DNA from: Candidatus Omnitrophota bacterium
GTDB lineage: Bacteria; Omnitrophota; Gorgyraeia; Gygaellales; Profunditerraquicolaceae
Direction of reading: 5' to 3'
DNA length: 48,275 nucleotides
Assembly: GCA_043802105.1 (NCBI GenBank)
Contig: JAZDLL010000014.1
Coordinates: forward strand, 1 to 48,275
The position numbers were made by a program, and so were the translations under genes. The notes under the pieces were generated by a model. The model was not told the DNA's origin and ran no database searches. It saw nothing but the letters and a program-made list of their open reading frames with translations. This document shows positions 5,418 through 48,206 of the stretch, in pieces. Positions within the stretch are counted from its first letter, which is position 1; the number at the start of each line of letters is the position of its first letter.

Positions 5418-5418
5418 G

Positions 5419-5491
5419 TGGAGCTGAGGAGGATCGAACTCCTGGCCCCCTCGTTGCGAACGAGGTGCTCTCCCAACTGAGCTACAGCCCC
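5419..5491 (-). tRNA. tRNA-Ala (anticodon CGC)
   Basis: The minus strand reads GGGGCTGTAGCTCAGTTGGGAGAGCACCTCGTTCGCAACGAGGGGGCCAGGAGTTCGATCCTCCTCAGCTCCA. It folds as a cloverleaf with anticodon loop TTCGCAA. It has the G3:U70 alanine identity pair and a GTTCGATCC T-arm. CCA is not encoded. Confidence 0.95.
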
Positions 5492-33584: not shown

Positions 33585-33658
33585 GTTTAAGCGGGTCCTG
33601 TCTTGGGTATTTTCTAGCGCTGACGCGCTGCGAAAACACCCAAGCCACCCGCTTAAAC
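33585..33658 (+). repeat. Family B hairpin element, copy B1
   Basis: The outer 12-bp stem GTTTAAGCGGGT / ACCCGCTTAAAC encloses an asymmetric internal loop (CCTGTC vs CC) and a long imperfect distal stem (TTGGGTATTTTCTAGCGC / GCGCTGCGAAAACACCCAA). It lies between the argG stop and the argH start. Confidence 0.65.
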
Positions 33659-34876: not shown

Positions 34877-34952
34877 GATTAACGGGTGGCTTGGGTGTTT
34901 TCGCGAGCCGCGTTAAAGCGCTAGAAAACACCCAAGACAGGACCCGTTAATC
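34877..34952 (-). repeat. Family B hairpin element, copy B2 (inverted relative to B1)
   Basis: The plus strand reads GATTAACGGGTGGCTTGGGTGTTTTCGCGAGCCGCGTTAAAGCGCTAGAAAACACCCAAGACAGGACCCGTTAATC, which is approximately the reverse complement of B1. It abuts the argF stop codon. Confidence 0.65.
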
Positions 34953-38116: not shown

Positions 38117-39253
38117 TTAGTTATAAGCGGCATTAATTTTTACATACTCCAAAGAAAGGTCACAGGTATAGATTGTGCACTTGGCCTTACCTCGGGACAA
38201 ACTAACCGCCAGCCTGACTTTTTTCCCTTTTAGCGTACTGAGTTTTATTTTTAATTGTTCTTCTTTAATCCCCAGTCCGCTGGCGCCAACTGCCTGGGCT
38301 ATCCGGCCAAAATTCGGGTTTTCTCCAAAAACAGCAGTCTTAAAAAGCACGGAGTTGGCAATCTCCAAAGCTACTTTTTTTGCCTCCTCTGCGTGCTTAG
38401 CCTGATAAACATCAATCTGAATAAATTTAGTCGCTCCCTCAGCATCTGAAACCACCATTTTGGCTAAAACCATACAGATTAATTCCAGGGCTTTGGTGAA
38501 TTTCTCTAGATCTGCTCCGGCAGTAATAATTTTGTTGCCGGCTGCGGCGTTAGCCAACACCAAAACCGTATCATTAGTACTCATACACCCATCCACAGAG
38601 ATACAGTTAAAGGATTTATCGACTGCACCTGCTAAAGCTTTATTCAAAACCCGCTTGGAGATTACCGCATCCGTCATAATGAAACAAAGCATGGTCGCCA
38701 TATTGGGAGCAATCATACCGGCTCCTTTGGCGATCCCGCAGATGTGCACCAACTTATCCCCGATCTTTATTCTTAAGGTTACTTCTTTAGGAAAAGTATC
38801 CGTGGTCATAATCGCCATTTTAGCCTTGTGAATACCGGAACCGGATAATCCAGAAACTAATTCCGGTATCCCTTCTTTAATCTTTCCTAGATCCAGTCTC
38901 TTGCCGATAATTCCCGTAGAACTAACCAAGATACTATTTTTGTTTATCCCTAACGCCTGCGCAACGTAGGAAGCTGCCTCTTGGGCATCCTTAATGCCGG
39001 ATTTACCGGTAAAACAATTCGCATTGCCGCTATTCACCAATACTGCCCGGAATCTCTTAAAAGTTTTTAAACGTTCTTGGCAAACAACCAAAGGCGCGGC
39101 AATTATACTATTGGTGGTAAATTTTGCGCAAGCCAAAGCCGGAAATCGCGAATAAATCAAAGCTAAATCCGGTCTACCGGATTTCTTTAATCCGCAGGCT
39201 ACCCCGCTAGCCTTAAATCCTTTAGGTAGAATGGCGTTCAAAATTTTCTTCAT
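38117..39253 (-). CDS. argJ: Bifunctional ornithine acetyltransferase / N-acetylglutamate synthase
   Basis: GFKASGVACGLKKSG, the autoproteolytic site ATMLCFIMTDA (A|TML) and TNDTVLVLAN. Confidence 0.93.
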   Translation of the reverse strand: MKKILNAILPKGFKASGVACGLKKSGRPDLALIYSRFPALACAKFTTNSIIAAPLVVCQERLKTFKRFRAVLVNSGNANCFTGKSGIKDAQEAASYVAQALGINKNSILVSSTGIIGKRLDLGKIKEGIPELVSGLSGSGIHKAKMAIMTTDTFPKEVTLRIKIGDKLVHICGIAKGAGMIAPNMATMLCFIMTDAVISKRVLNKALAGAVDKSFNCISVDGCMSTNDTVLVLANAAAGNKIITAGADLEKFTKALELICMVLAKMVVSDAEGATKFIQIDVYQAKHAEEAKKVALEIANSVLFKTAVFGENPNFGRIAQAVGASGLGIKEEQLKIKLSTLKGKKVRLAVSLSRGKAKCTIYTCDLSLEYVKINAAYN

Positions 39254-40284
39254 AATAATCCGGATGCCTCCGGTAGCTTATACATAATATTCATGTTCTG
39301 CACCGCTTGAGATGAGGCGCCTTTTAATAAATTATCAATCACCCCGATGGCGATAATATTCTTTCCAAAATCCTTAATTCCAATATCGCAGAAATTAGTC
39401 TTAACCACATCCTTGATCCTGGGAAAAACGCCCTCTGGCTTAATCCGGATGAAAGGTTCACCCTTATAAAACTTCTTATATAAATCTAGCAGGCCCTTGG
39501 GTTTTAACTTGGCACCGGGAACTTTCTTTAGATAAATCGTACAAAGGATTCCCCGCTCAATAGGTAAAAGATGCGGCACAAAGGTTACCTGAACTTTCTT
39601 GCCGGATAGCTTAGAAAGCAACTGATCTATTTCCGGAGCGTGCTGATGTACATTAACTTTATAAGCCCGAAAATCACCCTGGATCTCAGAAAATAAATAT
39701 TCGTTTTCCAGCTTCTTGCCGGCGCCGCTTACTCCGCTTTTGGCATCAATAATTATGGAATCGGTATCCACTAAATTTAGCGCCAGTAACGGGGCCAGCG
39801 ACAAGATCGCGCAAGTCGGATAACATCCCGGATTTGCTAAAAGCGAAGCCGTTTTTATTTTTGCCCGATTTAGTTCCGGTAGCCCATAAATTGCCTCTTT
39901 TAAGTTGCCTTTATCCTGATGAGTTACCTTATAGAATTTTTCATAAACCAAATGGTTCTTAATCCGGTAATCCGCGCTCAAATCAATAACTTTCTTTCCT
40001 AAACTTAAAAGCTTGGGTGCAAATTTCATGGAGACAGTGTGCGGCAGAGCCAGAAACACCAAATCACAATCTTTTTTTATTTCTGCCCAATCCGGTTTTT
40101 TGCAAATCAGATCAAGCCGATTTTTGAATTTGGGGAAAACATCTGAAATAATCTGAGCGCTGGGCGAGTTTCTACCGCTATTATAAAGATGGCAGATTTT
40201 TACGTTAGGATGGTTAAGCAAAAGCTCAATCAGCACCTCTCCGGTATGCCCGGTTGCCCCGATTATTCCCACATTGATCAACAT
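39250..40284 (-). CDS. argC: N-acetyl-gamma-glutamyl-phosphate reductase
   Basis: VGIIGATGHTGEVLIELL, the active-site block NPGCYPT and DAKSGVSGAG. RBS GAGGAGGAAG is present. Confidence 0.94.
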   Translation of the reverse strand: MLINVGIIGATGHTGEVLIELLLNHPNVKICHLYNSGRNSPSAQIISDVFPKFKNRLDLICKKPDWAEIKKDCDLVFLALPHTVSMKFAPKLLSLGKKVIDLSADYRIKNHLVYEKFYKVTHQDKGNLKEAIYGLPELNRAKIKTASLLANPGCYPTCAILSLAPLLALNLVDTDSIIIDAKSGVSGAGKKLENEYLFSEIQGDFRAYKVNVHQHAPEIDQLLSKLSGKKVQVTFVPHLLPIERGILCTIYLKKVPGAKLKPKGLLDLYKKFYKGEPFIRIKPEGVFPRIKDVVKTNFCDIGIKDFGKNIIAIGVIDNLLKGASSQAVQNMNIMYKLPEASGLL

Positions 40285-40319: not shown

Positions 40320-40348
40320 ATAATAGAATAAAATTAAACTTCCGTCAA
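40320..40348 (-). promoter_or_regulatory. Sigma70-like promoter for the arg-lys string
   Basis: The minus strand has TTGACG (40348-40343), a 17-nt spacer and TATTAT (40325-40320), about 35 nt upstream of the argC ATG. Confidence 0.45.
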
Positions 40349-40384
40349 GGTTTTTTCTCGTCGGAATAAAGATATAACTATTAC

Positions 40385-40560
40385 GTGTCTGTCTTGTCTT
40401 GTTTCTCGCAGGGACGCTGGTTGCGGCCCAGCGTGCCGCAACTGCGCTCGGGTCGGCTGCGTCGCTCTGCCTTGCTTCGTAATAGCCGGGCAACCGTGCC
40501 CGCTCCTTGCCTCCACGCCCTGCTCGAAATCAAGCCAAGCCAACCGCTGAAAATGTTACT
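40385..40560. other. Unclassified GC-rich structured island (candidate ncRNA or nest of GC hairpin elements); strand unresolved
   Basis: A sharp GC-rich block in AT-rich surroundings. Local hairpins are TTGCGGC-CCAGCGT-GCCGCAA (40421-40440) and GCCGGGCA-ACCG-TGCCCGC (40485-40503). A longer-range pairing is GCAGGGACGCTGG (40408-40420) with CCACGCCCTGC (40512-40522). Four mutually overlapping ORFs here look like GC artefacts. Confidence 0.4.
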
Positions 40561-40611
40561 AAGTGCCAAGCAAAAGACGGAAAACTAGCAGAAACGTAAT
40601 GCTCTATAAAC

Positions 40612-40640
40612 AAAAAATCCCGCTTTTACTAGAGCGGGAC
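40612..40640 (-). terminator. Rho-independent terminator after rpsI (bidirectional-looking)
   Basis: The minus strand reads TCCCGCT-CTAGTAAA-AGCGGGA-TTTTTTG. The plus strand also has CTTTTTG after the stem. Confidence 0.7.
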
Positions 40641-40676
40641 TTTTTGAAAAAGATTATATTTAAAAAAATCTTTAGC

Positions 40677-41072
40677 TTACCTCTTGGTCCACTGGAAGCG
40701 TTTACGCGCGCCTTTTAAGCCGTACTTCTTGCGTTCCTTCATCCGCGAATCACGGGTCAAATATCCATTCTTACGGAAAATTTCCTTAAAATTCTCATCC
40801 GCGATTAATAAGGCCCGGGAAATACCTAAACGCAAGGCACCGGCTTGGCCGGTCATTCCGCCGCCGGTAAGATTAGCGGTGATGTTAAATTTTCCGCTGC
40901 TTTCGGTAAGCGCTAAAGGCTGCAAAACAATAATCCGGTCAGTTTCGCGCAAGAAATATTTCTCAAAAGGCCGGCCATTAACCACTATCTTGCCGCTGCC
41001 CGCTTCCATCCGCACTCTAGCTGTTGATTCCTTACGCCTGCCTAACGCGTTATATTTAGTTAATTCACCCAT
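40677..41072 (-). CDS. rpsI: 30S ribosomal protein S9
   Basis: [12 protein letters not shown]...[19 protein letters not shown]...[29 protein letters not shown]. Confidence 0.97.
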
Positions 41073-41510
41073 TTAACTCTTAACCTCCAAAACAAGCGGC
41101 TTTATGCCCGTCAGATCATGTTTATCATCAGCATAAACCCTTAATTTCTTAATTAAATCTCTGCCTAATGGGCCGATCGGAAGCATCCTCTCCACCGCTA
41201 AATGTATAACGGTAGTCGGCTTTTTCGCTAAAAGCACCTCTAATTTTACCTCACGCAATCCTCCGGGGTAACCGGAGTACCTGCGATAAACCTTTTGCTT
41301 AAGTTTACGCCCGGTGACTTTAATCTGGCTGGCATTAATTACAATTACCCCATCACCGGTATCCAGGTGTGGCGTAAATATAGGCTTATGCTTGCCCCTT
41401 AAGATAGCGGCAACCTTAGCCGCCAATCTTCCCAGGATCTGGCCCTTGGCGTCAACAATATACCATTTCCTTTTGATGTCTTCTGGTTTAGCTGTATAGG
41501 TCCTTTTCAT
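41073..41510 (-). CDS. rplM: 50S ribosomal protein L13
   Basis: KWYIVDAKGQILGRLAAKVAAILRGKHKPIFTPHLDTGD.VIVINA and GYPGGLR. Confidence 0.97.
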   Translation of the reverse strand: MKRTYTAKPEDIKRKWYIVDAKGQILGRLAAKVAAILRGKHKPIFTPHLDTGDGVIVINASQIKVTGRKLKQKVYRRYSGYPGGLREVKLEVLLAKKPTTVIHLAVERMLPIGPLGRDLIKKLRVYADDKHDLTGIKPLVLEVKS

Positions 41511-43476: not shown

Positions 43477-43551
43477 ATTAGCGGGTGGCGATGACTGATT
43501 CCGAGGCCGGTAAATGCGGCCGAGGAACAGTCATCGACAGGACCCGCTAAT
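43477..43551 (-). repeat. Family B hairpin element, copy B3 (same ends, different distal stem)
   Basis: The plus strand reads ATTAGCGGGTGG-CGATGACTGATTCCGAGGCCG-GTAAATG-CGGCCGAGGAACAGTCATCG-ACAGGACCCGCTAAT. The GCGGGTGG...ACAGGACCCGC ends match B2, but the about 20-bp distal stem is unrelated in sequence and still pairs. It starts 2 nt after the leuB stop. Confidence 0.65.
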
Positions 43552-48086: not shown

Positions 48087-48099
48087 AAAATGACTACAC

Positions 48100-48192
48100 A
48101 TCTTTTCCTCCGCTGGCATTATCCAGATCAGGTGATTAGGGTAATCTGCTCATTACGCAGAACTCTCAGGCCGCTTTAGCGACCTCCCCACT
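48100..48192 (-). promoter_or_regulatory. TPP (THI-box) riboswitch aptamer
   Basis: The minus strand reads AGUGGGGAGGUCGCUAAAGCGGCCUGAGAGUUCUGCGUAAUGAGCAGAUUACCCUAAUCACCUGAUCUGGAUAAUGCCAGCGGAGGAAAAG. It contains GGGG...CUGAGA...ACCC and the near-invariant ACCUGAUCUGGAUAAUGCCAGCG.AGG.AA block. P3 (GGUCGC/GCGGCC) and a P3a insert (UCUGC/GCAGA) are both base-paired. Confidence 0.9.
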
Positions 48193-48206
48193 AATTTATT
48201 TTCTGT

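Follow-up and report, generated by a model that had tools for sequence, protein, structure and literature searches.

The window analysed here is a 48,275-nucleotide stretch of a Candidatus Omnitrophota genome (assembly GCA_043802105.1, contig JAZDLL010000014.1), in which a G+C-rich, gene-free island lies between rpsI and argC. On balance, we favor the view that this island is one copy of an uncatalogued, non-autonomous repeat, resembling MITEs (short for miniature inverted-repeat transposable elements) and the palindrome pairs called REPINs, that looks mobile, that selection maintains in a folded, single-stranded form, and that rides along at this site as a passenger. We read it as a non-autonomous repeat because copies are dispersed, because orthologous sites hold the element, lack it, or carry it decayed or inverted, because copies within a genome resemble each other, and because no protein gene is linked to them.

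The copy, termed E1, occupies positions 40389-40552, with its sense strand on the window minus strand, and was recovered by an nhmmer profile with E=1.7e-40. When a covariance model (CM) of the family, R1, was applied, the match scored 150.5 bits (E=4.5e-36) over 40375-40565, a span that includes flanking sequence. An initial annotation, made by reading the window, had placed the island at 40385-40560; its location stands, with the nhmmer coordinates as the best boundaries. The annotation was right about composition, since the G+C content of 66% in 40400-40549 is the top value for any 150 nt of the window (mean 42.6%, standard deviation 5.5%, about 4.3 standard deviations above the mean), and about the absence of genes, the open reading frames (ORFs) there being short, overlapping and spread over four frames. 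The direct repeat it noted, CGCTCTGCCTTGC / CGCTCCTTGCC, is the reverse complement of two copies of an invariant GAGCG motif (GGCAAGGAGCG / GCAAGGCAGAGCG). The outermost terminal part of the window copy is degraded.

Copies, hosts and signs of movement

To collect relatives, the pattern GAGCGGGCANGG-N(12-42)-GAGCGA-N(9-16)-GARGYG, derived from conserved blocks, was scanned over one genome per species, followed by nhmmer and CM R1. Copy numbers obtained in this way are lower bounds, and the taxon labels of metagenome-assembled genomes (MAGs) are given as deposited. Omnitrophota MAGs yielded at least about 50 full-length copies, spread over many unrelated loci and, in each MAG, over several contigs, and at least about 35 copies sharing a core of about 100 nt were found in MAGs labelled Aminicenantes, Saccharibacteria, Paceibacterota, Sungbacteria, Desulfaltia, 'Eubacteriales' and others. 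Without exception the copies lie between genes, many of them 3-30 nt past a stop codon. The full-length element measures 165-190 nt and ends in terminal inverted repeats of 25-35 nt, which form the arms of a closing stem (P1); the outermost 9 bp, TTAGCGGGT/ACCCGCTAA, are a perfect inverted repeat in most Omnitrophota copies.

The window itself contains four members of the family, the full copy and three hairpins of about 70 nt that retain the terminal arms and have no core. The first of these, P1 arms with a small tip, lies in the argG-argH spacer (33587-33656, minus strand) and scored 30.6 bits with CM R1 (E=3.3e-5), model positions 1-187 being matched in 87 nt. A near-identical hairpin in the opposite orientation lies upstream of argG (34879-34950, plus strand), and the two bracket that gene. 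The third is in the spacer between a leuB-like gene and asd, upstream of asd (43478-43550, plus strand), a site at which loci L115 and L130 carry full-length copies. BLAST returned no further E1 copies inside the window, and these short forms were found later by profile and CM searches and by the terminus motif.

Comparison of copies revealed a higher median identity within MAGs (0.79) than between MAGs (0.675), and in MAGs with multiple copies the best match of a copy usually lay elsewhere in the same MAG, with 88-96% identity. Among the 19 copies with parsable ends, TA flanked the 5' end in about 15 and the 3' end in about 11, above the composition expectation, and a palindromic TTA...TAA extension of the element is an equally possible description of these ends. 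In environmental metagenomes, contigs showed the element at 10-100 times the depth of its flanks, with many different flanks attached. An element of the type in locus L180 reached 10-100 times flank depth in four runs of unknown kind, in which copy number and expression are inseparable; none of the RNA runs searched holds the window or the SPRUCE Aminicenantes locus. Two near-identical core elements in L180 (660-798 and 2382-2520), and three copies within 8 kb in L127, flank single housekeeping genes in MAGs of the 'Eubacteriales'/Aminicenantes type. Spurious ORFs running through core elements of this kind give recurring pseudo-peptides that could contaminate protein databases.

The neighborhoods of the copies were then screened for genes that might be linked to the element. 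Clustering the ORFs around copies by BLAST yielded no recurrent neighbor beyond that expected from synteny, and a Pfam search with 150 ORFs from the flanks returned 147 different families, GGDEF, peptidase M48 and tRNA synthetases being the foremost, with no recurring transposase, HUH, reverse transcriptase or recombinase family. No RAYT gene was present next to copies in the fetched loci. A scan with the 15-nt terminus for an autonomous element gave hits that were mostly due to chance. Termini lay far apart as a pair only in L207, where 2.5 kb separates them; lpxB and an oxidoreductase gene lie in between, and the pair was resolved into two separate elements. A phage origin was also rejected, all five pattern matches in IMG/VR failing the CM, and the plasmid collection contained no blastn match to the element.

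The rpsI-argC spacer in relatives

On the minus strand, the gene order at the window locus is rplM (41073-41510), rpsI (40677-41072), a terminator, about 290 nt of non-coding DNA, a promoter, argC (39250-40284), argJ and argB. Both signals named as flanks of the island in the initial annotation are present, and both lie outside E1. The intrinsic terminator of rplM-rpsI (40611-40646, minus strand) is bidirectional in form, with 14-nt arms that are 93% complementary and T-runs on both strands, as had been pointed out for the plus strand; the terminator part of Thr_leader was matched there on both strands, and a homologous hairpin is present in about all relatives. The argC promoter (40320-40364, minus strand) is sigma-70-like, with a 10/12 match, and consists of a -35 TTGACG (40343-40348) and a -10 TATTAT (40320-40325) spaced by 17 nt, with an upstream box, CCGACGAGAAAAAACC, at 40349-40364. 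It is conserved in about 70 Omnitrophota loci, with or without E1.

To examine the orthologous site, we retrieved 80 loci with an ArgC search, mostly labelled Candidatus Omnitrophota, and the rpsI-argC arrangement was conserved in almost all of them. The basal form of the spacer is 145-230 nt long, and in it the T-run of the terminator leads directly into the box (T)TCCG(A/T)CGAGAAAAA-CCTTGACGG, which is followed by the promoter. The closest relatives, whose ArgC is 84-91% identical, have this basal spacer and no element. An expanded spacer holding the element was seen in about 12 of 65 genomes, and the element is absent from about 80% of the orthologous loci. One metagenome contig joins position 40364 to 40678, at less than 95% identity, only distant relatives of the window being present there. 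As a separate observation, the argC promoter region (40320-40366, minus strand) is very strongly conserved across Omnitrophota; it contains the box (T)TCCG(A/T)CGAGAAAAA, directly upstream of the -35 TTGACGG, and an AT-rich spacer, ATTTTATTC, which may be an operator of the ArgR type.

Where the spacer is occupied, profile searches detected the element in sense orientation in L011, L013, L022, L039, L040 and L049, in inverted orientation in L014, L019 and L037, and as decayed or truncated copies in L020, L030 and L035; L022 contains two copies, one in each orientation. The copies in this spacer belong to at least two subfamilies and have their best matches at other loci, and the L011 copy, for instance, resembles the window copy less than it does a copy from another MAG and another locus (0.89). 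The presence of different subfamilies indicates that the spacer was hit more than once. L019 keeps TTAACGGG|ACCCGTTA where L013 has the full copy. The palindromic remnant TTATTAACGGG|ACCCGTTATAGC, upstream of argC in L019 (2850-2900), stands exactly at the L013 full-element site, and could be the footprint of an excision or deletion, or an empty palindromic target.

These comparisons bear on whether the element acts locally, as an insulator or second terminator for rplM-rpsI, or as a leader or upstream regulator of the argCJB operon. Its exact placement, with the rpsI terminator on one side and the arg promoter on the other, and its sense orientation for read-through would fit such a role, as would the fact that other family members in the window also adjoin arg genes. 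However, the element is upstream of the conserved promoter and not in the leader, it is missing from the spacer in most relatives and inverted in three, its sense strand is not followed by a U-run, and the same element sits elsewhere beside unrelated genes from the 147 Pfam families listed above. We therefore regard a local cis-acting role as very improbable. The long arg leader raised in the initial annotation is excluded, because the promoter is downstream of the element, which is dispensable and invertible at this locus, and because basal relatives have the terminator and then directly the promoter; for the same reasons, a conserved local non-coding RNA (ncRNA) gene is unlikely.

The occurrence of both orientations raises another explanation, that the element is an invertible DNA segment, switched at a fixed site by site-specific recombination between its inverted repeats. 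Both orientations are found at the same orthologous sites in three comparisons (L011/L013 versus L014/L019; L039/L040 versus L037; and L120 versus L132, in which the flanks are 88% identical and the oppositely oriented elements 80% identical), the outermost 9 bp would provide a perfect inverted repeat, and inversion has been reported for Correia elements (PMC10969869). Nevertheless, inverted copies are as diverged as direct ones or belong to other subfamilies, with no recent flip documented, the interior has no promoter-like sequence, no recombinase gene is linked in the loci examined, and a double-stranded switch would not need the strand-specific fold described below. A switch of this kind is thus improbable, if slightly less so than a local cis-acting role.

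A second repeat family, E2, was encountered in the same spacer. It is about 210-230 nt long, has the ends TTTCCGTCTTTT(A/G)C...GCAAAAG(A/C)CGGAAA, and is unrelated to E1. Full E2 copies lie beside E1 upstream of argC in L011 (2500-2735), L019 and L022, in either orientation, and the E2+E1 block in L011 and L019 appears inverted as a whole. The window keeps one solo terminal fragment of E2, TTTTCCGTCTTTTGCTTGGC (40565-40584, minus strand), between the terminator and E1.

Fold and selected strand of the element

When the window copy was folded as a single sequence, it only weakly outperformed shuffled sequences (z of -1.9 for the plus and -1.35 for the minus strand), and the evidence for structure therefore rests on covariation among about 85 relatives and not on the window sequence alone. 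Accordingly, 45 distinct Omnitrophota copies were aligned with MAFFT, blind to structure, and RNAalifold identified a closing stem and three inner helices; the structure tested was refined by hand and contains 41 pairs. In the structure-blind alignment, 93.3% of cells form standard pairs, and 34 of the 41 pairs are compensatory, compared with 16.6±2.3 in shuffles (0 of 500). Control structures in which the partners were slid gave at most 50% pairing and at most 19 compensatory pairs. The number of compensatory pairs was 37 of 41 on a CM-fitted, multi-phylum alignment of 85 distinct sequences, an alignment that leans towards the model. The local hairpins and the long-range closing pairing of the initial annotation exist, and strong covariation marks the island as genuinely structured.

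In the modelled fold, the long closing stem P1 carries a three-way junction. On the minus strand, the 5' arm of P1, GGCTTGGCTTGATTTCGAGCAGGGCGT (40515-40541), pairs with the 3' arm, GCGTCCCTGCGAGAAACAAGACAAGACAG (40389-40417), and compensatory changes are found in nearly all P1 pairs. P1 also contains an invariant U-G pair (45/45 in the Omnitrophota alignment, 70/85 in the multi-phylum alignment) and a tandem G.A motif, TTCGAGC at 40522-40528 opposite GCGAGAA at 40403-40409, which is conserved across phyla as UUCGAGC/GCGAGAA. P2 (GGAGGC, 40509-40514, with GCAGCC, 40455-40460) covaries family-wide and flanks an internal loop. One side of this loop is the junction strand GAGCGGGCACGG (40494-40505), whose family consensus, GAGCGGGCAYGG, shows no variation among the Omnitrophota copies (45/45) or among those from other phyla (30/30), and facing it is an invariant AGAGCGA (40462-40468), conserved across the family. 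P3 is a hairpin of variable length (UGCC...GGCA, 40468-40492); each of its four base pairs covaries, and positions 40475-40479 form a CGAAG tip. P4 is the hairpin GTTGCGGC-ACGCTGG-GCCGCAAC (40420-40442), with a freely covarying stem and a conserved loop, NCGCNGG (40428-40434). The length of P3 varies by non-multiples of 3, and conservation tracks base pairing rather than codons. The CGAAG pentamer, often as GCGAAGC or CCGAAGG, recurs at P3 tips in many members from different phyla, and also occurs inside the conserved junction strand CCGAAGCG.

The strand, left unsettled in the initial annotation, was resolved by the asymmetry of the non-canonical pairs. In paired columns, G.U outnumbers A.C by 162 to 47 (92 to 47 once the invariant U-G is removed), and G.A/A.G outnumbers C.U/U.C by 225 to 16. 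Selection for the structure is thus confined to a single strand, which in the window is the minus strand. Since the mismatches are strand-asymmetric, selection acts on a single-stranded form, either RNA or single-stranded DNA (ssDNA), and not on a duplex protein-binding site.

We also looked for signs of transcription. Promoter-like sites precede the sense strand in 3 of 48 copies and the antisense strand in 4 of 48, with none before the window copy, and no U-run follows the sense strand of the element. Relative to co-directional neighbors, 19 copies have the same orientation and 12 the opposite one, and orientation shows no bias relative to local GC skew. The sequence C-GAA-G is known to form an unusually stable mini-hairpin in DNA and is not known as a favored RNA loop. 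The missing promoter, the lack of orientation bias and the frequency of C-GAA-G at P3 tips lead us to lean, not decisively, towards selection on ssDNA and not on RNA.

Against this background, the family could be a multi-copy structured ncRNA gene, such as a self-cleaving ribozyme of a new kind, or an RNA that binds proteins or serves as a scaffold. In this case the junction core would be functional and P1 would only close it, and dispersal would reflect expansion of a gene family or RNA-driven mobility. The invariance of the junction nucleotides and the conservation of the P1 tandem G.A across phyla favor this explanation, as do the strong covariation of all helices, the strand-specific G.A and G.U pairs, which are typical of RNA, and the retention of copies at orthologous sites with conservation equal to or above that of neighboring genes. 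On the other hand, promoter-like sites are as rare upstream of the sense strand as of the antisense strand, orientation is not tied to flanking transcription, the window copy is preceded by an intrinsic terminator, the tips of P3 often carry a DNA-type mini-hairpin, many copies are decayed or coreless, and no ribozyme model in Rfam scores on the element. We consider an ncRNA gene less likely than a non-autonomous repeat, yet a serious competitor to which we give far more weight than to a local cis-acting element or an invertible switch.

Relation to known elements and meaning of the family

All 4227 models of Rfam 15 were run with cmscan against the whole window at gathering thresholds, and against the island and two further members of the family at E<=10; eight member-bearing loci were also scanned at gathering thresholds. 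No family matched the island on either strand at E<=10, RF00013 (6S) included, and neither the two other members nor the eight loci gave a match at their respective thresholds. The remark in the initial annotation that the island resembles no recognizable RNA family was thus borne out. The only matches within the element were stray ones well short of threshold (ATPC reached 13.8 bits, with 45 as its gathering score), and the weak matches in the window scan belonged to the neighboring terminator. Elsewhere in the window, Rfam and ARAGORN reported only a thiamine pyrophosphate (TPP) riboswitch (48088-48200, minus strand; 56.5 bits, just over the gathering score) and a tRNA-Ala(CGC) (5418-5491, minus strand). 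Searches of the literature by words and by sequence strings found no description of the family.

6S, signal recognition particle (SRP) RNA, RNase P, transfer-messenger RNA (tmRNA), riboswitches and catalogued ribozymes were accordingly excluded at the level of cmscan. That the island is one of these RNAs, missed by eye, is suggested by size and G+C richness only; with no match among the Rfam models, and with a sporadic, multi-copy distribution that is incompatible with single-copy housekeeping RNAs, we give this almost no credence. 6S RNA, the specific guess of the initial annotation, resembles E1 in being about 180 nt long and G+C-rich with a long closing stem, but it is a rod with a central bubble encoded by a single conserved gene, whereas E1 has a three-way junction and is multi-copy, sporadic and variable in orientation. 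Absence or inversion at the orthologous spacer and the lack of an upstream promoter-like site also told against the stand-alone, locus-specific ncRNA first proposed. The fallback offered at that time, a nest of GC repeat elements, came closest to the truth as far as a repeat family is concerned; inert repeat debris, which was named there as the outcome if the structured-RNA idea failed, does not agree with the selected sequence and strand-specific structure. By-eye comparison of the core with HDV-like, hammerhead and twister ribozymes, group II intron domain 5, the K-turn, the 11-nt GNRA receptor, the plasmid sso CS-6 motif, attC and retron msr-msd revealed none that fits the covariation-supported architecture. 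For integron attC in particular, the ends TTAGCGGGT...ACCCGCTAA are not R''/R' core sites (RYYYAAC...GTTRRRY), and there is no cassette array and no intI nearby.

Among known repeats, the ERIC or IRU sequences of Enterobacteriaceae and Vibrionaceae are 127-bp imperfect palindromes that have size variants and form a long stem-loop when single-stranded (PMC10969869). E1 resembles them in being small, non-coding, intergenic and multi-copy, in occurring in both orientations, with presence or absence at orthologous sites and with shorter and longer variants, and in a sequence unusually conserved across species. Such features of ERIC were reportedly also described by Hulton (1991) and by Wilson and Sharp (2006). 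In contrast to ERIC, which is limited to one class of Proteobacteria, E1 crosses phyla, is G+C-rich in an AT-rich genome, and has a three-way-junction core with invariant nucleotides; the two share no sequence similarity.

REP sequences and REPINs are mobilized by RAYT (Y1 HUH) transposases, which recognize them as folded single strands, and are long-lived at orthologous sites. Like E1, they are G+C-rich extragenic palindromes that occur in either orientation and lie downstream of stop codons or in the gap between convergent genes, and the three short hairpins of the window look REPIN-like. Their units are, however, only 20-40 nt long and without a branched core, while E1 has no GTAG-type 5' motif, and no RAYT gene accompanies the E1 copies examined.

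Correia elements of Neisseria (CREE/NEMIS) produce transcripts that fold into hairpins (PMC10969869). These and other TA-flanked MITEs share with E1 a length of 100-200 bp, long terminal inverted repeats, TA-flanked ends, many gene-proximal copies and size classes due to internal deletion. Correia elements differ in being AT-rich and in carrying promoters and a site for integration host factor (IHF), neither of which was seen in E1; moreover, the conserved part of E1 is its interior and not its termini, and its stem mismatches are strand-specific. As in prokaryotic MITEs generally, E1 is small and non-coding, has terminal inverted repeats, and is dispersed with presence or absence at orthologous sites, but a cognate autonomous insertion sequence with the same ends was not found in about 130 loci, whose neighboring ORFs include no transposase family.

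If the island is a non-autonomous repeat, an unlinked enzyme encoded elsewhere would copy or move it in trans by recognizing the folded single strand, with ssDNA or RNA as the active form. The element would land in AT-rich spacers beside terminators and stop codons, and would then persist or decay to a coreless hairpin, as the three short members in the window may have done. At the window locus, it would have inserted downstream of the rpsI terminator and upstream of the argC promoter as a passenger, needed for the expression of neither arg nor rpsI, and adding at most a hairpin barrier to read-through.

Several observations weigh against this interpretation. A core of about 100 nt that contains invariant nucleotides is shared across phyla, while the terminal arms differ between lineages; MITEs usually show the opposite pattern, and such cross-phylum conservation suggests that the core may itself be functional. 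Prokaryotic MITEs, moreover, are typically AT-rich (PMC10969869), and this element is G+C-rich. No autonomous partner or mobilizing enzyme was found among the approximately 130 loci fetched. In the 80 argC-centered loci (about 560 kb), all full-length copies lie in one spacer and none in about 480 others, so that old insertions kept in place, rather than frequent movement, could account for the recurrence of the element at a few orthologous sites. Finally, the comparisons yielded no exact pair of empty and filled sites at high identity, and we infer transposition and duplication of a TA target.

The conservation of the interior also raises the possibility, which we put forward tentatively, that the core represents a new class of functional nucleic-acid module, acting either as RNA, in the form of a new ribozyme or a recruiter of proteins, or as folded ssDNA that signals to an unrecognized mobilizing enzyme. 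The candidate module comprises the GAGCGGGCAYGG and AGAGCGA strands, the NCGCNGG loop and the tandem G.A, and is common to Omnitrophota, Patescibacteria and Aminicenantes-type genomes. Were this correct, the core would drive the spread of a non-autonomous family across phyla and would establish a novel type of mobile, structured element among uncultured bacteria.

The family would add about 85 distinct members of a structured nucleic-acid element absent from Rfam 15 and from the literature searched, and spans several uncultured phyla, including Omnitrophota and the reduced-genome Patescibacteria. Its covariance model lets annotators mask or label such G+C-rich islands, instead of recording them as orphan small RNAs or spurious ORFs. 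The combination of a conserved interior with variable termini, and of a strand-specific fold with no link to the direction of transcription, offers an entry point to an unknown mobilization or RNA-based mechanism in these bacteria.

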